The notes under the pieces are model-generated. The model ran no database searches. It was not told where the DNA came from and saw only the letters and a program-made list of their open reading frames with translations. Shown here piece after piece: positions 27,115-35,517 of a DNA stretch of 64,000 bases. Positions within the stretch are counted from its first letter, which is position 1. Every line of letters begins with the position of its first letter. The DNA lies in the NCBI GenBank assembly GCA_965207885.1, contig OZ242311.1, positions 4,896,001-4,960,000 on the forward strand. The letters are read 5' to 3'. Origin of the DNA: Candidatus Latescibacterota bacterium (lineage in GTDB: Bacteria > Latescibacterota > UBA2968). Both the position numbers and the translations under genes were made by a program.

Positions 27115-28242
27115 ATGCTGAATTTACACGGTGAAAAAATTATTCGGATTGAAAAAGTGGTTATGAAATTTAAGCGGCCCCGCCTGATCGGTCGCAATGC
27201 GCGAATTGGCGTTCACGGGGATATGGTGACGGATCCCGTGGTTCGCATTCATACAAGTAGCGGTGTTATTGGCGTTGGGTGGTCGCGGTTGGGTCGGGAA
27301 GAAGCCGAGTCATTGGTGGGCAAAGCCGTTGGGGATGTGTTCCAATTGCCGGGGGGATCAAACGAAGCTGGAACGGTGATTGATTTGCCTCTGTGGGATC
27401 TGGTAGCCAAATTGTCGGATCAGCCGTTGTACAAACTCCTGGGTGCTCGGGGATCTCGGGCAGTCGAGTTGTACGATGGTTCGGTTTATATCGACGATCT
27501 GGATGCCTCGGACGCGGAGGCTGTGGAGATATTCCGGGACGAAGTCAAGACAGGGCACGATTACGGGTATAAAAATTTCAAAATTAAAATTGGTCGCGGC
27601 GCGCGCTGGATGCCTGTTACAGAAGGTACGGATCGGGATGTGCTGGTTATTCACATTGTTCGTGAAGCCGCTGGCGCAGATGCAAAGATACTCGTTGATG
27701 CAAATAATGGCACGACGCTCAATATTGCAAAAGATATTCTCGAGCGTTGTGAAGATGTGGGGATTTACTGGTTTGAAGAACCGTTTCCCGAAGATGGGGC
27801 TTTTAACGAGGATTTTAAGCAGTTCATCGTCGAGAAAGGATACGATACGCTCGTCGCCGATGGGGAATCGGGTCCTCCGCCACCCAGTTATTTTGATATG
27901 GTCAAAAGGGGATGGATCGATGTGGTGCAACACGATTTTCGCGCCAAGGGGCTTACGTGGTGGCGCGAGACTGCCGCGATGATCGAACCCTGGGGAGGCC
28001 AATGTGCGCCTCATTGCTGGGGCAGCTTGATCGAGCGCTATGCCCACGCGCATTTTGCAGCTTCCGTCCCCCATTTTGCGCTTCAAGAAGCCGCTCCTGC
28101 AGATATGCCGGGTGTTGTGCTGGATGGCTGGACAATGCAGGATGGATGTTTGATGGTGCCAGATACGCCGGGTACGGGATTTGACCTCGAGGCAGATGTG
28201 ATTGAAGAGGGGGTGAAGCGGGAAGATGGGTTCAGGGTGTAA
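27115..28242 (+). CDS. Mandelate racemase/muconate lactonizing (enolase superfamily) enzyme
   Basis: DLPLWDL, FKIKIG, VDAN, WFEEP, ADGE, PHCWG; AGGAG RBS. Confidence 0.85.
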   Translation: MLNLHGEKIIRIEKVVMKFKRPRLIGRNARIGVHGDMVTDPVVRIHTSSGVIGVGWSRLGREEAESLVGKAVGDVFQLPGGSNEAGTVIDLPLWDLVAKLSDQPLYKLLGARGSRAVELYDGSVYIDDLDASDAEAVEIFRDEVKTGHDYGYKNFKIKIGRGARWMPVTEGTDRDVLVIHIVREAAGADAKILVDANNGTTLNIAKDILERCEDVGIYWFEEPFPEDGAFNEDFKQFIVEKGYDTLVADGESGPPPPSYFDMVKRGWIDVVQHDFRAKGLTWWRETAAMIEPWGGQCAPHCWGSLIERYAHAHFAASVPHFALQEAAPADMPGVVLDGWTMQDGCLMVPDTPGTGFDLEADVIEEGVKREDGFRV

Positions 28243-28254
28243 TGGAGACAATAT

Positions 28255-29292
28255 ATGGATATGACATTTCCAGGAGCAGAATGGGAGACGAGACCGCCTG
28301 GCGACCTCGGGTTTGACGCGGAGAAACTCGCGCGGGTGCAGAGGTGGTTGCGCGAGGTGGCAGGTGACAGGTCCTTTCAGGTGGGGATTGCGCGTTATGG
28401 GTATCTCGCTGCGGAGTGGCGGCAAGGTGTTGCGGCTGATTCTTCGCACTCACAGGCGTCCGCGGCTAAGTCGTATTATTCGACGCTTTTGGGTATTATA
28501 GTGGCCGAGGGCAAGTTGTCTTCGCCAGATGAAAGAGTTGTCGATTACTACCCAGAGATGATGGATGTGGGAGAGCAGGAGGGACCAAAGCCCGGACGGT
28601 ATGCGTTCGAGAAAGATCGCGATATTACTTTTCGGCATTTGATATGCAATGTGTCGGGCTATATGAAGCCGGGGGAGAAGCCGGGGAAAGTTTTTCACTA
28701 TCAGACTTATGGGATGAATATTCTTACCCACGCTATGGCTAAAATTTATGGGTGTTACGATGCAGATGATCCCGAAGGTTTGCCGGGATGCGGGAAGGTG
28801 ATCGAAGAAAAGTTGCGCGATCCCATTGGTGGCATATGGACGCATTCGCATTCTAATTTTGATCTGTGGCCCAGTGCGAGATTAAATATTTTTGGGTATT
28901 ACACGCAGGTGCATACCACACTGCGAGATCAATTGCGGGTGGGACACTTGTGGGCCAATTACGGCAATTGGAATGGGGTTCAGGTTGCGCCCGAGAGTTA
29001 CCTGCGCGAGGCAACGGTGACGAATGATTTTATTCTGGAAAACGAACCCAAAGAGAACTGGAAATACGGGCACGGATTTTGGTGCAATGATCGCGGGATG
29101 CAGTGGAAAGATGCACCGAGAGACTCTTTTGCCGCATCGGGCGCTGGTGCAAAGCATATCTGGATGTGCCCGCGGTTGGGGCTGGTTATCGCGCAAAATC
29201 CAGGTCTGTGGGATCAGTTCAGGGAAGAGCAAGATAAGATCGGAAGTCAGAATGAGGTGATTGCGCGAGTTGTGAATGCGGTAAAGGAATAG
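28255..29292 (+). CDS. Serine hydrolase, beta-lactamase/AmpC-like family
   Basis: SxxK (SAAKS), ITFRHL, PGKVFHY, YGHGFW, FAASGAG. Confidence 0.8.
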   Translation: MDMTFPGAEWETRPPGDLGFDAEKLARVQRWLREVAGDRSFQVGIARYGYLAAEWRQGVAADSSHSQASAAKSYYSTLLGIIVAEGKLSSPDERVVDYYPEMMDVGEQEGPKPGRYAFEKDRDITFRHLICNVSGYMKPGEKPGKVFHYQTYGMNILTHAMAKIYGCYDADDPEGLPGCGKVIEEKLRDPIGGIWTHSHSNFDLWPSARLNIFGYYTQVHTTLRDQLRVGHLWANYGNWNGVQVAPESYLREATVTNDFILENEPKENWKYGHGFWCNDRGMQWKDAPRDSFAASGAGAKHIWMCPRLGLVIAQNPGLWDQFREEQDKIGSQNEVIARVVNAVKE

Positions 29293-29305
29293 GGAGGATA
29301 TATAG

Positions 29306-30628
29306 ATGGATGCAAAAACCAAAAAGTTGCAGGTGGATCAGGCTGTGAAATCGCAATCGCGGCGGGCGTTTAATCTGTCGCGGAGTATTCACGGCTGGGC
29401 AGAGCGGCCGTTTCAAGAATACGAGTCGTCGAAGGCATTGGCGGCGTATTTGGAGGAGAACGGATTTCAAATTGAATTTCCGTGGAAAAATATCCCAACG
29501 GCTTTTCGCGCCACATGGGGCACGGGCAAACCCACTATTGGCATGTTGGGGGAGTACGATGCATTGCCCAATTGCGGTGCTGAAGAGGGCACCTGGGGCC
29601 ACGGCTGAGGCCATAATCTTTTGGGCGTTGCCCCGGCCGCAGGTGCGGTTGCTGCAAAAACAGTATTGGAAAATTTGAAATCGTCTGGTCAGATCATTTA
29701 TTACGGCTGTCCGGCCGAAGAGACGCTGGCGGGCAAGGTGTATATGGCCCGCGATGGTGCATTTCGAGATCTGGATGCGGTGCTGGCATGGCATCCAGGA
29801 TCGGGTACGGGTGTTAGCAATTATGGCGGTTCGTCACTGGATTCGCTGGTGTATGAGTTTTTTGGCAAGACGTCTCACGGCGCGAGTGCTCACAATGGGC
29901 GGAGTGCATTAGACGGGGTGATGTTGATGGATGTTGCGGCGAATTATTTGCGCGAGCACGTTCCCGAAAATGTGCGTATTCACTGTGTGATTCGAGATGG
30001 TGGGGATGCGCCCAATGTGGTTCCGGCTTATGCGAAGGTGTGGTACTATGTGCGGGGGAAGGATCGTGAACAGGTGAATAAAGTACGCAAGCGATTGACC
30101 AAATGCGCCAGGGGTGCGGCGATGGCCACGGAAACGACTATGAAATGGCATCGTATCACGGCTGTGTACCCGCGTTTGCCAAATGATGTGATGTGCGAAA
30201 CTGTGCGTCAAAATCTCGAATTATTCGGTCCACCTCGTGCGTCAAAAAAAGATAAGGAACGCGTAAAGGAATTGGGATACAAAGGTGAATTTGACGGGAA
30301 GATCAAAAAGGGGAAGGGTTCACAGGGCCGCGGGTCTTCGGATGAAGATAATGTGTCGTGGCTGGCACCGATGGGTCGGTTTCAGATGGTGTGTTATACC
30401 AAGGGCACGCCGGGTCATCACCGCGATATGACCGCACAGGCAATAATGCCTTATGCCGAGCGCGCGGTTTTGCAAACGGCCAAGGTTTTTGCGGGATCGG
30501 CTATTGATCTGATTTTGGACAAAAAGGTGTTGCAAGCAGCCCGTGCGGAATTTGTGAAGGGAACAAAGGAGTTTGAGTACGATCCGCTGATCCCAAAACG
30601 CCAGAAGGTTCCCGTGGACCCTCCGTAG
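29306..30628 (+). CDS. M20D/AbgB-like amidohydrolase, 440 aa with in-frame TGA (29606-29608) predicted as selenocysteine
   Basis: ORF-track pieces 29306-29608 and 29621-30628 are in the same frame. Joined they read EYDALP...GHG-[TGA]-GHNLLG, followed by intact CPAEE, WHP, GRSALD, NYLREH, APNVVP, GSSD and TPGH motifs. Confidence 0.85.
29609..29650 (+). promoter_or_regulatory. Candidate bacterial SECIS element
   Basis: GGCC (29609-12)/GGCC (29635-38) lower stem with a GGGC-GUU-GCCC (29623-33) apical hairpin 18 nt after UGA; alternative GGCCGC-AGGU-GCGGUU (29635-50). Confidence 0.55.
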
Positions 30629-30641
30629 AAGGAGAAAAGAT

Positions 30642-31634
30642 TTGAAAGCACAACGATTAATATGCACAGATGTCCGGCGGATTGAATTAGAGGATTTTGA
30701 TTTGCCGCGTGTGCCAGATAATGGCATTTTGGTGCAAAACGATTATACCGCCATGAGTGTTGGTACGGAAATTTACAATTATGCGCACGGGGGTGAACCG
30801 TCGCGTGCAAGGACATTTCCGCGGCCAACAGGGTATTGCAATACGGGTGTGGTGCTCGAGGTGGGCAATGATGTAAAGGGGTTGGAGCCCGGCGACCGCA
30901 TTGCCGCGCAGGGCAATCACGCCAGTCATGCGGTTATGAGCGGGAATTTTTTTAGAGCGCCCGAAGGTGTTTCGCCCAGGTCCGCGGCTTTTATGGTTAT
31001 GTGTGCTATTGCCATGCACGGGCATCGGGTTGGGCGTCCGGAATTGGGTGAGGTTGTTGCGATTACCGGTATGGGGATTGTGGGCCAGTTGGCTGCGACC
31101 TTTGCGCGGTTGGCCGGTGCGCTCTCGGTTATTGCGATTGATCTGGATGATTTTCGGTTGGGTAAAGCGAGAGATAGGGGGGCAGATATTTGTATTAACC
31201 CCAATACTGCAGGGGATGTCGCCGAAGTGGTGCGCGAGCATTGCGTGGGCGATGGGGTCGATCTGGTGATTGAAGCGACGGGTATTCCGGCGGTTTATCC
31301 CATGGCATTGACCTTGCCTCGGCTGGGTGGCCGTCTGGTCGCGCTGGGGTCTCCGCGCGGTAGTGTGGAAGTGAGTTTTTTGCCCGAGGTTCACTTGCGC
31401 GAGATCACGGTTTTGGGCGCGCATCAGCCCAAGACACCGGATGATGACCATATTTATTATCCTTGGAGCAAGCGCAGAGATCGCGAACTAATTTTGCGTT
31501 TGATGGCTGCGGGCAAGTTGCCCATCGAGGATCTGATTACCCATGTCGCCAATCCCGCCGATTGCCAGGCTACCTACGACATGCTCGCCGATAATCCGAG
31601 AGAAGTGTTGGGCGTGGTATTTGAGTGGGGGTGA
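30642..31634 (+). CDS. Zinc-binding (MDR) dehydrogenase, BchC-like subgroup
   Basis: SVGTE, GYCNTG, GMGIVG Rossmann motif, IEATG, LITH. TTG start with AAGGAG. Confidence 0.85.
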   Translation: MKAQRLICTDVRRIELEDFDLPRVPDNGILVQNDYTAMSVGTEIYNYAHGGEPSRARTFPRPTGYCNTGVVLEVGNDVKGLEPGDRIAAQGNHASHAVMSGNFFRAPEGVSPRSAAFMVMCAIAMHGHRVGRPELGEVVAITGMGIVGQLAATFARLAGALSVIAIDLDDFRLGKARDRGADICINPNTAGDVAEVVREHCVGDGVDLVIEATGIPAVYPMALTLPRLGGRLVALGSPRGSVEVSFLPEVHLREITVLGAHQPKTPDDDHIYYPWSKRRDRELILRLMAAGKLPIEDLITHVANPADCQATYDMLADNPREVLGVVFEWG

Positions 31635-31684
31635 TCTCGCCTGCTAAAATAAAATTCCTGTCAGAACCATAGAGGAGATCGAAT

Positions 31685-32509
31685 ATGAGATGTCACTCTT
31701 TTAAAAATTACAAGTACGGCCCCCATGAGCGGAACGTATTTGATTTTTATCCGGCACAATCAGACGAACCCACCCCTGTTGCAGTGTATATTCACGGCGG
31801 CGGTTTTAGAAATGGCAGCAAGGATGGGATTGGTAATGAGACATTGAAAGCTTTATTAGATGCGGGCATTTCTGTCGCGGCTTTTAACTATCGTTATGTC
31901 CAGCAGGCTCCTTTGCCTGCTGCGCACTACGATTGCCGACGAGCGCTTCAGCTTCTGCGTTCCAAAGCCACCGAATGGAACATCGATAAAAATCGGATCG
32001 GTGCATTTGGCGGATCGGCCGGAGCACAAATTTGCATGTATCTTGCTTTTCACGAAGACATGGCCCGTCCAGACAGCGGTGATCCAATCGAACGCGAATC
32101 TACCAGACTTCAGGCCGTGGCTACATCTGGCGGTCAGACCACGATGGACGTTGCCTGGTGGAAGAAGAATATTCCTGGATACGCCGAATCCCATCGAGAT
32201 TTTTATCAGACATTGGGCGCAACGACCCAGGAAGAATATCAGAATCGCGTAAGCGAGATTTCGGCGCTTGATCTGGTATCAAAGGACGACCCCGCTATTT
32301 ATATGAGTTATAGAATGTCACCGAAAGACCCTGTGCCAGAAGGACAGACTGCTCGTGGTTGGAAAGTGCATCACGTGCAGTTTGGTGTTGCTTTAAAAGA
32401 AAAAATGGCAGCGCTTGGTATAGAATCTGATCTGGTTTATCCAGGTTCAAAAAATAAATATCAAAGCAATGTTGACTACTTTATCTCAATGTTAAAAAAT
32501 AGGAAATAG
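31685..32509 (+). CDS. Alpha/beta hydrolase (HSL/BD-FAE-like esterase)
   Basis: IHGGGF, NYR, GGSAGA, late HH candidate catalytic His; GAGGAG RBS. Confidence 0.85.
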   Translation: MRCHSFKNYKYGPHERNVFDFYPAQSDEPTPVAVYIHGGGFRNGSKDGIGNETLKALLDAGISVAAFNYRYVQQAPLPAAHYDCRRALQLLRSKATEWNIDKNRIGAFGGSAGAQICMYLAFHEDMARPDSGDPIERESTRLQAVATSGGQTTMDVAWWKKNIPGYAESHRDFYQTLGATTQEEYQNRVSEISALDLVSKDDPAIYMSYRMSPKDPVPEGQTARGWKVHHVQFGVALKEKMAALGIESDLVYPGSKNKYQSNVDYFISMLKNRK

Positions 32510-32624
32510 ACGAATTTGAGGCACCAGTTTGGCCCTTTTTTCTTTGACAAGTCGCTCTTGGAGCGCAATTATAGGGGTTGTAAAAATGCAGATTCAATGT
32601 TTAAAGATATTTACGAGGTGATCA

Positions 32625-33122
32625 ATGGCTTTCAAGACCACTGATTTGTGCGATGAACACGAAACCGACCCGGCACTTCAAGTTGCCGAGCCGATATTCA
32701 ACGACTACGGCGGTGTTACGGCATTTTGCGGTCCGATTGCCACGGTCAAAGTTCACGAAGACAATGTGCTCGTGCGCGAGATACTCGAAACGCCGGGCGA
32801 GGGGCGCGTTCTCGTCGTCGATGGCGAGGGTTCGATGTGGTGCGCGCTTTTGGGGGATATGGTCGCTGAAATCGCCAGCGACAACGGCTGGTCGGGGATT
32901 GTCATAAATGGCGGTGTGCGCGATGTGTCTGAACTTGCACAAATTGAAATAGGCGTCAAAGCGCGTTTTGCTGTGCCGCGCCGCAGCCGAAAAGAAGGCA
33001 AGGGCCGCCAGGATACGCCTCTTGCTTTTGCCGGTGTCGCCTTTCTTCCGGGCGATTATCTCTACGCCGATGAAGACGGTATTTTGATTGCCACGCGAGA
33101 TTTGTTAGAAGCGCAGGATTGA
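32625..33122 (+). CDS. rraA: RraA family protein (RNase E regulator / HMG aldolase-like)
   Basis: TTDLCD, FCGPIATVK.HEDN, VLVVDG.GS..CALLGD, GGVRD, YADEDG. Confidence 0.9.
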   Translation: MAFKTTDLCDEHETDPALQVAEPIFNDYGGVTAFCGPIATVKVHEDNVLVREILETPGEGRVLVVDGEGSMWCALLGDMVAEIASDNGWSGIVINGGVRDVSELAQIEIGVKARFAVPRRSRKEGKGRQDTPLAFAGVAFLPGDYLYADEDGILIATRDLLEAQD

Positions 33123-33156
33123 CTTGCAATACAACCCTTACACTATGGAGACAACT

Positions 33157-34524
33157 ATGCCGCAGACAGATCGACCCAATATTCTCTTTATTATGGACGA
33201 CCAGCATCGTTTTGATTATATGGGCTGTGCAGGTGCTGATTTTGTTCGCACGCCCAATATTGACCGCCTGGCAAAGCAGGGGGTGCATTTTACTCAATGC
33301 ACGACAAATTGCCCTGTTTGCGCACCTTCGCGCATTGCACTGGCTTCTGGCATGCAGCCCTCGCGCCTCGGTTGCGTTGGGAACAATTGCTTCTTGCCTC
33401 GCAGCCAACCGACTTATTACCAGCAATTGCGCGATTACAATTATTACGTGGGTTGTGTGGGTAAGCTCGATCTGGCCAAACCCGATGGGTACAACGGACG
33501 CGATGGCGATAGGCCAGCTACGTATATGTGGGGCTTTACTCATCCGGTCGAATGCGAGGGCAAAATGCACGCTGGGCACTCCAAAACACCGCAGGGTCCT
33601 TATAACCACTTTTTGGAGGAAAGAGGGTTGCTCGGTGCTTTTGTCGATGATTATACCCGTCGCTCCAACGAGGGTTATCACGCTTCCTGTCACGATTCGG
33701 TCTTACCCACCGAAGCTTTTGAGGATGTGTATATTGGGCAGCGATCTGTCGAGTGGATTGAGAATATTCCCGGGGATTTTCCCTGGCATTTATTTGTGAG
33801 CTTTGTGGGGCCTCACGATCCTTTTGATCCGCCAGCCGAATACGGGGAGAAGTACCGCGATGCAGAGATGCCACCCGCTACGCCTGCAAATTTGCCGGGT
33901 AAGCCCGCTTACTTGAAAGATCGCATCAAAGACATGACCCCTGAAAAAATCGCAGAGACCCGACGGCAATATTGCGCGGCAATTGAAGTTATTGACGATC
34001 AGATCGGCGAGATGCTCGCGGCAGTAGAACGGCGGGGGATGACCGATAATACGTATGTTATCTTTTCCAGTGACCACGGAGAAATGCTGGGCGATCACGG
34101 TTTGTACACCAAAAGCGTGCCTTACGAAGCATCGGTACATGTTCCGCTCATTGTTGCGGGTCCCGGTATTGAAGGCGGTCGCGTCTCAGATGCTCTTGTT
34201 GAACTCATTGACATGAATCCAACGATATGTGATCTCGCTAGCGTGCCTCCGCTTTCGGATATCGATGCGCGATCAATTGGCGCGGTGCTTCGCAGAGAGG
34301 CAGAGGAACACCGCACGGAAACCGTGAGTGGCATACAAAATTTCAGGTGTATCCGTACGCGGGAGTACAAATTGGTCGAGAACTACAACGATGTTACGGA
34401 ACTCTACGATTTGATTGCAGATCCGACAGAAGAACACAATATTGCCGAACAGGAGCCAGAGGTACGGCGCGAATTGTCTCGCCGTCTCTCAGCGCGTTAT
34501 TTAGAAGGCACATGGTATCGGTAG
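33157..34524 (+). CDS. Cys-type formylglycine-dependent sulfatase
   Basis: PNILFIMDDQ, TPNIDRLA, CAPSR, GPHDPF, SDHGE, ELYDL.ADP.E; GGAG before ATG 33157. Confidence 0.9.
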   Translation: MPQTDRPNILFIMDDQHRFDYMGCAGADFVRTPNIDRLAKQGVHFTQCTTNCPVCAPSRIALASGMQPSRLGCVGNNCFLPRSQPTYYQQLRDYNYYVGCVGKLDLAKPDGYNGRDGDRPATYMWGFTHPVECEGKMHAGHSKTPQGPYNHFLEERGLLGAFVDDYTRRSNEGYHASCHDSVLPTEAFEDVYIGQRSVEWIENIPGDFPWHLFVSFVGPHDPFDPPAEYGEKYRDAEMPPATPANLPGKPAYLKDRIKDMTPEKIAETRRQYCAAIEVIDDQIGEMLAAVERRGMTDNTYVIFSSDHGEMLGDHGLYTKSVPYEASVHVPLIVAGPGIEGGRVSDALVELIDMNPTICDLASVPPLSDIDARSIGAVLRREAEEHRTETVSGIQNFRCIRTREYKLVENYNDVTELYDLIADPTEEHNIAEQEPEVRRELSRRLSARYLEGTWYR

Positions 34525-34533
34525 GAGGGAATC

Positions 34534-35517
34534 GTGAAATACACCAAACTGCCCGGCACGGATATCGATGTTTCCGTTATTGCTCTGGGCTGCTGGCCTT
34601 TTGCTGGTGGTGATGTTTGGGGAGAGCAAGACGACGATGTGTCTATCGCGACGGTGCATGCCGCACTCGATGCGGGTATTACCTTTTTTGATACGGCAGA
34701 AGGCTATGGTAAGTCCGAGCGCGTGCTGGGACAGGGTCTCAAAGGTCGTCGGCAAGACGCGGTGATTGCCACCAAAGTTGGCGGCGGTCATCTTTCTTCC
34801 GATGATTTGCCCAGAGCCTGCGAACAGAGCTTGAAAAGTCTGCAAACAGATTATATCGATCTATACCAAATTCACTGGCCCAATCACAATATTCCCATCG
34901 CAGAAACAGCAAGCGCGCTTCAGCGTCTCCGCGATCAGGGAAAAATTCGGGCTATTGGCGTTTGCAATTTTGCTTGCGGCGATTTGCGCGACTTGCTCGC
35001 TGTTGTCGATATTGTCACCAATCAGTTGTCTTTTAGTTTGCTCTGGCGCATTATTGAACGCGAGATTCAGCCGATGTGTTTGGAAAACAATATTGGCATT
35101 ATCTGTTATAGCCCGCTGATGCAGGGGTTGCTTACCGGACGTTATGCCTCTGCGGATGATGTGCCAGATGGTCTGGCGCGAACCCGCCTGTTTTCGGATG
35201 ACCGCCCCATGGCCAGACACGGTGAAGAAGGCTGTGAGGCCGAAGTGTTTGACGCGCTGGAAAAAATTCGCGATGTTGCCGATGAAGCAGGCGTGGCAAT
35301 GGCAGAGATTGCCCTTGCCTGGGCACTACAACAACCCGGTATTACATCGCTTCTGGTGGGCGCGAGAAATCCCGATGAAGTGCAATGGAATCTCCCTTCG
35401 GTTGATCTCGCATTGTCAGAAGATATATTGCAACGCTTATCTGAAATTACAGAGGGTGTTAAAGACAAACTCGGCAATAATCCCGATATGTGGATGTCGG
35501 AGTCGAGGATGAGGTAG
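34534..35517 (+). CDS. Aldo/keto reductase
   Basis: FDTAEGY, IATK, DYIDLYQIHWP, GKIRAIGVCN, YSPL. Confidence 0.92.
   Translation: MKYTKLPGTDIDVSVIALGCWPFAGGDVWGEQDDDVSIATVHAALDAGITFFDTAEGYGKSERVLGQGLKGRRQDAVIATKVGGGHLSSDDLPRACEQSLKSLQTDYIDLYQIHWPNHNIPIAETASALQRLRDQGKIRAIGVCNFACGDLRDLLAVVDIVTNQLSFSLLWRIIEREIQPMCLENNIGIICYSPLMQGLLTGRYASADDVPDGLARTRLFSDDRPMARHGEEGCEAEVFDALEKIRDVADEAGVAMAEIALAWALQQPGITSLLVGARNPDEVQWNLPSVDLALSEDILQRLSEITEGVKDKLGNNPDMWMSESRMR

Follow-up and report, generated by a model that had tools for sequence, protein, structure and literature searches.

A probable selenoprotein of the M20D amidohydrolase family in Latescibacterota, with UGA at the codon of the predicted metal-bridging residue

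The window analyzed here is a 64,000-nucleotide stretch from a Candidatus Latescibacterota bacterium (assembly GCA_965207885.1, contig OZ242311.1, positions 4,896,001 to 4,960,000 of the forward strand), whose source genome consists of one contig of 6.23 Mb. At 29306-30628 the window carries a gene for an M20D-type amidohydrolase whose frame contains an in-frame TGA; we consider it very probable, on comparative sequence evidence, that this is a true selenoprotein gene and that UGA101 is decoded as selenocysteine (Sec). From the ATG at 29306 the frame runs for 100 codons to the TGA at 29606-29608, the sole internal stop, and then for 339 codons before it closes with the TAG at 30626-30628. The TGA lies in the series GGC CAC GGC TGA GGC CAT AAT CTT TTG GGC (29597-29626), which agrees with the G-H-G-stop-G-H-N motif described in an earlier, sequence-only reading of this DNA. 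That reading had also described 339 further codons with intact family motifs and no other lesion, and the read-through product indeed contains CPAEE (residues 135-139), WHP (162-164), GSSD (342-345) and TPGH (368-371). The gene and its immediate signals are as follows.

29306..30628, plus strand: probable full-length selenoprotein gene, encoding a 440-residue M20D/TIGR01891 amidohydrolase through UGA101 and ending at the TAG stop (full-length homologs in 55 genomes; dN/dS in both halves)
29606..29608, plus strand: UGA, very probably read as Sec, residue 101, at the metal-bridging cysteine site of GHGCGHN (shared column in all 44 TGA forms fetched; Cys codons in homologs)
29293..29299, plus strand: Shine-Dalgarno-like GGGAGGA, 6 nucleotides (nt) 5' of the ATG and following the TAG of the upstream gene (29290-29292), from the sequence as read

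The read-through product matched the NCBIfam model TIGR01891 ("amidohydrolases") over residues 24-374 with 196.9 bits, against a cut-off of 153.75, and the Pfam dimerisation/lid domain M20_dimer (PF07687) over residues 183-269 (E = 2.4e-7). Its best solved relatives by sequence were Staphylococcus aureus HmrA (3RAM, E = 1e-41) and the Xaa-Arg dipeptidase PM20D2 (7YH4/8XZC, E = 3e-37), both of which read GHACGHN at the position of GHG-TGA-GHN. Family-profile matches also included CsAga (6SLF, E = 4e-16), the N-acyl-glutamine aminoacylase of C. striatum, as well as YxeP, ILL2 and 4EWT. The statement of the sequence-only reading that the family cysteine bridges two metal ions is documented for CsAga: according to PMC7209930 and PMC11511702, the sulfur of Cys-105 binds both zinc ions, the other zinc ligands being His-107, Glu-141, His-168 and His-370. 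The spacing of U101, H103, E139, H163 and H371 in the present protein is the same as that of the CsAga ligands. Position 101 (Cys or Sec), H103, E138, E139 and H163 were invariant in all 41 sequences compared, and H371 was at least 90% conserved. The predicted site residues are encoded at the following positions.

29612..29614, plus strand: His103 codon, predicted metal ligand equivalent to CsAga His-107 (invariant in 41 of 41; motif spacing)
29717..29722, plus strand: Glu138-Glu139 codons (PAEE), predicted general base and metal ligand, equivalent to CsAga Glu-140/Glu-141 (invariant in 41 of 41)
29792..29794, plus strand: His163 codon (WHP), predicted metal ligand equivalent to CsAga His-168 (invariant in 41 of 41)
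30416..30418, plus strand: His371 codon (TPGH), predicted metal ligand equivalent to CsAga His-370 (at least 90% conserved in 41 sequences)

We searched 168 Latescibacterota genomes for homologs and kept matches at E ≤ 1e-40 (n = 83). Exactly one TGA was present in 55 of 55 matches at 70-100% identity, which came from 55 species-level genomes of families f1 (31 genomes), f2 (18) and f4 (6). No stop was present in one match at 69% identity (genome G154) and in 26 matches at 34-47% identity, and one match at 34% identity carried a TAG (G046, family f6, contig C295:3296-4459). When 44 of the 55 TGA forms were fetched, the TGA occupied the GHG-U-GHN column in all 44, and 43 of them had a common ...DPP C-terminal end, L052 ending in ...DLP. 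In G154 (68-69% identity) the Sec column is occupied by TGC (locus L055: TGC). A scan of one genome per species, from which 80 loci were kept, yielded TGC or TGT at 76 loci and TGA at 4 of the Latescibacterota type, three of these being named Latescibacterota/Latescibacteria and one "uncultured bacterium". Among 37 metagenome loci, TGA was found in two (L167, L168) and TGC in 35 (L169-L203), counts that are biased to Cys forms by a scan seeded partly with a Cys-containing peptide pattern. Cys forms also made up 17 of 20 fetched database proteins, 16 of them full length, with up to 83% identity (the 440-residue P0002 and P0003 reach this range), and one of 401 residues. The TGA form was not found in 401 Verrucomicrobiota genomes (one matched) or 401 Planctomycetota genomes (eight matched), all nine close matches there (threshold E ≤ 1e-120) being without stops. 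Independent homologs with TGA in the same column thus occur beside Cys homologs, both of which the sequence-only reading had proposed to look for, and the singleton nonsense mutation that it had named as a refutation was not what the 55 close homologs displayed.

Selection on the two halves of the gene was compared by the Nei-Gojobori method. The ratio of nonsynonymous to synonymous substitution rates (dN/dS) between divergent pairs was 0.09-0.21 upstream of the TGA and 0.07-0.12 downstream of it, for the pairs that allowed dS to be calculated; among more divergent sequences synonymous sites were saturated, and the proportion of nonsynonymous differences (pN) was at most 0.28. This proposed check accordingly returned purifying selection on both sides of the TGA. 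Another, on the codon itself, was answered by two independent sponge-metagenome assemblies from different studies, which cover the stretch in full, one with 47 differences and the other with 49: among the 40 listed differences (11 more were unlisted), none fell within 29585-29679, which includes the TGA. Since the TGA is conserved in all 55 matches at 70% identity or more, its chance occurrence is excluded and, as judged from these comparisons, it is not a lesion.

The region just past the UGA contains a candidate bacterial selenocysteine insertion sequence (SECIS) within the coding sequence, and three features were distinguished there.

29634..29651, plus strand: candidate bacterial SECIS hairpin, CGGCCGC / loop AGGU / GCGGUUG (RNAalifold consensus of 20 sequences; fit to the bacterial SECIS, or bSECIS, model)
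29623..29633, plus strand: small hairpin GGGC-GUU-GCCC directly 5' of the SECIS stem (its four pairs are invariant in 20 of 20 sequences, hence no covariation either way)
29624..29650, plus strand: codons +6 to +14 after the UGA, with the strongest synonymous constraint in the gene (synonymous-difference fractions)

The candidate SECIS has a 7-bp stem (29634-29640 paired with 29645-29651) and a loop, AGGU, that begins 32 nt past the UGA; the 28-nt stretch containing it has a folding energy of -10.1 kcal/mol. The bSECIS model of PMC13188914 allows spacings of 16-37 nt, stems of 4-16 bp and loops of 3-9 nt in which a G at the first or second position precedes a G or U, and it requires a minimum free energy of -7.5 kcal/mol or lower; the candidate agrees with all four criteria set out in the legend to Fig. 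2 of that paper. RNAalifold on 20 sequences returned a consensus of two hairpins, GGGC-GUU-GCCC, which may be part of the SECIS element, and a stem of 6-7 bp, CGGCCGY / RGGU / GCGGUYG. Pairing was mostly kept where the stem varied: pair 36-51 was GC in 15 sequences, GU in two, AU in two and AC in one, and pair 41-46 was CG in 12 and UG in eight. A similar element, a 7-bp stem with a GGU loop that starts 20 nt past the UGA, is present in this genome's selD gene. We therefore regard the hairpin at 29634-29651 as a putative SelB-recruiting element.

Synonymous variation pointed to the same segment. In 19 representative Sec forms, the synonymous-difference fraction, that is, how often codon pairs for the same amino acid differ in codon, was 0.14 for codons +6 to +14; no other 9-codon window was as low, and the mean over the gene was 0.538. 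By contrast, in nine Cys forms the same window had a fraction of 0.68 against a mean of 0.54, with 407 of 435 windows at or below it. Because the constraint is absent in the Cys forms, some of which encode identical residues in this window, it appears to act on the RNA and to be specific to the UGA forms.

As a separate observation, one Cys form on a metagenome contig (L171:1501-2823) still has a hairpin that closely resembles the SECIS of Sec forms (GCCGUGGGCGCGGU), and the codon for the conserved Ser of DEDNVSW is an in-frame TAG. This copy may have been converted recently and be in the course of decay, or the TAG may reflect a sequencing error.

The Sec machinery, whose presence the sequence-only reading had left to be confirmed, was found in full in the source genome: selA (575 bits), selB (386 bits), selD (369 bits, with a TGA of its own) and tRNA-Sec (70 bits), the last also called by ARAGORN as tRNA-SeC with anticodon tca. 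The window itself contains no tRNA gene. The selA and selB genes adjoin each other at 4303107-4306366, away from selD, which lies as follows.

G000:C1:5699077-5700198, minus strand: selD (L014/L017), itself a selenoprotein gene with UGA in CGGUASK; tRNA-Sec lies about 100 nt downstream

Across the phylum, selA was present in 131 of the 168 genomes and in 54 of the 55 with the TGA form. The exception (G013, 91% complete, 430 contigs) contains a Sec-type selD, tRNA-Sec and part of selB, truncated where a contig ends. In genus g29, which holds the Cys form of G154, no selA, selB or selD scored over the cut-off in either of the two genomes, and the best tRNA-Sec scores (46-49.5 bits) were in the range of the secondary non-Sec matches of the source genome (48.4 and 47.3 bits). 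TGA is an ordinary stop codon in the source genome, since it ends 1457 of 3487 stop-to-stop frames of at least 300 codons, and it is the commonest stop there.

A crude scan of the source genome for TGA followed by a hairpin gave 152 matches, 34 of them with long flanks, and recovered both the M20D gene and selD. Of ten other matches examined, two each proved to be a pair of distinct genes sharing a frame, and the remaining eight, L228 among them, gave no Pfam match. L228 is a second candidate selenoprotein (G000:C1:3450263-3451537, minus strand, 425 residues) with an in-frame TGA in G-C-T-U-N-N-G. A search of 31 relatives gave 23 matches; 22 of them preserve this TGA, at identities as low as 41%, and the other is partial and ends short of the site. 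The only NCBIfam hint was a faint match to NF041383 (VPGUxxT thioredoxin-like (seleno)protein), at 19.4 bits against a cut-off of 275.

Four other explanations of the interrupted frame were weighed. In the first, UGA101 would be read through by a near-cognate or suppressor tRNA carrying Trp, Cys or Arg, and the hairpin would act as a read-through stimulator. Sequence evidence by itself does not identify the inserted residue, and covariation in the hairpin is slight, both of which leave some room for this explanation. The codon, however, aligns only with Cys in homologs, the hairpin both fits the bSECIS model and is similar to the element in the genome's own selD, and TGA is otherwise the commonest stop there. 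Furthermore, selA accompanies the TGA form in 54 of 55 genomes, and the Cys form occurs in a genus where no Sec machinery was found. We therefore consider near-cognate read-through improbable.

In the second, translation would stop at UGA101 and restart, producing a 100-residue and an approximately 335-residue piece that would assemble into an enzyme without its bridging ligand. The earlier statement that the downstream half has no ribosome-binding site is not entirely accurate: the TGA together with the following GG forms GAGG, 10 nt before a TTG at 29621. Gene callers and GenBank likewise list products of 320-336 residues. In GenBank these genes appear as fragments of 320-335 residues ("peptidase dimerization domain-containing protein", the NCBI name on two of them), and the protein collection holds many entries of 320-336 residues that start just past the TGA site, such as P0007, which is 98% identical and belongs to a cluster of 217 sequences. 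The TTG, however, is not conserved among the 44 Sec forms: the first in-frame ATG, GTG or TTG after the TGA stands at +5 in 22 of them, at +46 in ten, at +11 in six, at +4 in three and elsewhere in three. Moreover, the break would fall exactly at an otherwise invariant metal ligand while the flanking GHG and GHN are kept, and the synonymous constraint lies downstream of the putative restart rather than at the position of a ribosome-binding site. A split gene thus seems to us a little less probable still. One member of the P0007 cluster is labelled in NCBI as derived from a Gemmatimonadetes/Gemmatimonadota metagenome-assembled genome (MAG), and the genome records with the gene are labelled Latescibacterota, probably a difference in MAG classification.

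The last two explanations are both highly improbable. A pseudogene, arising by nonsense mutation or by sequencing or assembly error, would account for the interrupted frame and for databases that hold fragments only, but not for a TGA shared by 55 species-level genomes and two independent metagenome assemblies, the low dN/dS downstream of it and the lack of other stops or frameshifts. A changed genetic code with TGA as a sense codon (Trp or Gly) is favored by the open frame alone and is opposed by the 1457 of 3487 long frames that TGA terminates, by a homolog column that is Cys rather than Trp or Gly, and by the mere 34 long read-through frames found in the TGA-plus-hairpin scan.

Several points weigh against decoding of UGA101 as Sec and against the metal site built on it. 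The basis for Sec is sequence evidence, not detection of selenium. The 55 TGA genomes are kin, so that the UGA in them may represent a single inherited event rather than 55 independent ones. Covariation in the hairpin is thin, because the hairpin varies so little: only one pair is changed on both sides, in two of 20 sequences, and one cell is broken. Folded by itself, 29600-29680 does not exceed shuffled sequences in stability (z = 0.29), so single-sequence folding alone does not reveal the SECIS element, and no Rfam family was matched, a scan of 29000-31000 giving three chance-level matches only. The Pfam catalytic domain Peptidase_M20 (PF01546) was not reported for the product at E ≤ 0.001, where only M20_dimer appeared; PF01546 is precomputed for many close homologs. 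The residue correspondence to CsAga comes from motif spacing and the profile match, not from a residue-level alignment or a model, and a search of the PDB with a 75-residue segment did not return 6SLF. Finally, two sponge metatranscriptome runs contain short contigs over 29769-30035, 30417-30750 and the end of the upstream gene; these do not span the UGA and show neither transcription across the site nor its absence.

If UGA101 is decoded as Sec, a single 440-residue M20D metallo-amidohydrolase of the dipeptidase or N-acyl-amino-acid hydrolase class would be made through this codon. By the usual bacterial route, the intragenic hairpin (29634-29651) would bring in SelB carrying Sec-tRNA(Sec). 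Because the sulfur of the equivalent cysteine in CsAga binds both zinc ions, we infer that the selenolate of Sec101 bridges the two catalytic divalent metal ions, as the thiolate does in Cys-type M20D enzymes. The metal site would be completed by His103, Glu139, His163 and His371, and Glu138 would serve as the general base. The Cys-type enzymes HmrA, PM20D2 and CsAga belong to the same family and share the GH-x-C-GH-N, PAEE and WHP motifs, the C-terminal His and the M20 dimerisation domain; unlike them, the present gene has UGA for the bridging residue and a SECIS-like hairpin within its coding sequence.

Replacement of a Cys metal ligand by Sec, with Cys-form orthologs in existence, has precedents in the molybdenum- or tungsten-selenium formate dehydrogenase FdhA and in [NiFeSe] hydrogenases. 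Those enzymes, however, are redox enzymes with selenium on one redox-active metal, whereas here the enzyme is a hydrolase and selenium is predicted to lie across two Lewis-acid ions. In FdhA and [NiFeSe] hydrogenases, Sec has been suggested to guard the site against irreversible over-oxidation (PMC13188914). By analogy, one may speculate that Sec in the M20D enzyme would ease recovery of the bridging ligand from oxidation or, alternatively, alter metal preference.

To place the Sec and Cys forms relative to each other, we built a quick tree of 39 rows (LG+G4), in which the two were interleaved: the best tree implies four changes, and the starred branches force at least two. The Cys forms P0002 and P0003 were nested with f1 Sec forms in a clade with SH-aLRT support of 98%. 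An approximately unbiased (AU) test on 42 rows rejected the Sec forms as one clade (p = 0.0011), with the caveats that the group was named after the tree had been seen and that the search was quick and the model simple. As the nucleotide element downstream of the UGA is near-identical in all Sec forms, we infer a single gain of Sec, followed by several presumed reversions to Cys.

New bacterial selenoprotein families are reported regularly. The sequence-only reading had placed this one outside the known selenoprotein families, and it is indeed absent from the catalogues checked. Table 1 of PMC13188914 (2026), with 119 prokaryotic selenoprotein families and subfamilies, has no M20, peptidase or amidohydrolase entry. 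M20, amidohydrolase, peptidase and hydrolase go unmentioned in the main texts of PMC13188914, PMC12013277, PMC2398784, 10.1101/2022.07.06.499078, PMC1976440, PMC5029168 and PMC9312934, whose supplements could list candidates. No selenoprotein-specific model of the family exists in NCBIfam release 20 (June 2026), and a full-text literature search found no report of an M20 or amidohydrolase selenoprotein. One paper considered as a prior report, PMC5658510, was set aside: it deals with selenium genes being absent, and its hippuricase is unrelated. The computationally defined Sec/Cys families outside the thioredoxin-fold oxidoreductases in PMC13188914 form a comparable class, and none of them is M20 or amidohydrolase.

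To bridge the two metals of a hydrolytic site would be a new role for Sec. Most selenoproteins are thiol-type oxidoreductases, and the debate over Sec versus Cys has been framed around redox chemistry (PMC13188914). If the proposed site is correct, Sec bridging two Lewis-acid ions in a hydrolase would offer a natural test case outside that frame: metal affinity and selectivity, site pKa, Lewis acidity and resistance to oxidative inactivation could be measured side by side in Sec and Cys orthologs that are up to 83% identical. We think it likely that this is the first natural metallohydrolase with a selenolate-bridged dinuclear catalytic centre and a non-redox, structural-catalytic use of Sec, and that this use arose a single time in Latescibacterota, as the near-identical SECIS of all Sec forms suggests, persisted in lineages associated with sponges and gave way to Cys on several occasions, one or more of them in a lineage in which Sec machinery was not found. 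Bacteria that live with sponges would then contain a fairly abundant enzyme that is systematically mis-annotated, since GenBank lists it as fragments, 217 sequences in one cluster alone, and it would be missed in metaproteomics databases.

The gene belongs to a same-strand run (27115-35517, plus strand) with very short gaps, upstream of which lies a divergent SMC gene. The run encodes, in order, an MR/MLE protein, a beta-lactamase-family protein, the M20D-Sec protein, a zinc-dependent dehydrogenase, a BD-FAE esterase, an RraA-like protein, a sulfatase and an aldo-keto reductase. The nearest neighbours are as follows.

27115..28242, plus strand: enolase-superfamily (MR/MLE) protein, upstream on the same strand (Pfam; syntenic with the Sec gene in f1 and f2, at 6 of 8 loci examined)
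28255..29292, plus strand: beta-lactamase-family serine hydrolase, directly upstream (Pfam)
30642..31634, plus strand: zinc-dependent dehydrogenase family, downstream (AAGGAG ribosome-binding site in the 13-nt gap; syntenic in f1 and f2)

At eight other f1 and f2 loci, the zinc-dependent dehydrogenase gene was near the Sec gene in all eight and the MR/MLE gene in six, and two f4 loci had a different context. The beta-lactamase-family gene adjoins the Sec gene at one other locus of the genus (L155) and lies about 4 kb off in L156; at one f2 locus, the Sec gene lies between genes for an Iso_dh-family dehydrogenase and an M19 dipeptidase. These neighbours differ from the hmrA/ldmS operon as described in PMC9486568. 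Scans for promoters and terminators returned sites no more numerous than in shuffled sequences.

Since its nearest characterized relatives are dipeptidases and aminoacylases, the enzyme is most likely, judging from these homologies, a hydrolase of dipeptides or N-acyl-amino acids. PMC9486568 describes a preference of HmrA for Met-X dipeptides, and the PM20D2 structure was deposited as an Xaa-Arg dipeptidase. JGI names several homologs "aminobenzoyl-glutamate utilization protein B" (AbgB). The Escherichia coli AbgB (p-aminobenzoyl-glutamate hydrolase subunit B) is an M20D protein too, and the family profile matched PDB 3IO1, an "aminobenzoyl-glutamate utilization protein", at E = 2e-19, but HmrA and PM20D2 score far better than 3IO1. 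The AbgB name is not backed by the neighbourhood, because no second M20D (abgA-like) gene or AbgT transporter gene was present among the eight neighbour genes scanned, the scan being confined to these. A pairing of N-acyl-amino-acid racemase and aminoacylase was also considered and is unsupported, the MR/MLE neighbour having no model match near a cut-off: its NCBIfam matches are only to acid-sugar dehydratase and racemase models, all far below their cut-offs.

Public sequencing runs containing the region 29000-31000 came from 11 studies and were mostly labelled as sponge metagenomes, with 12 runs holding at least half of the sampled words. These labels are consistent with a sponge-associated lineage.

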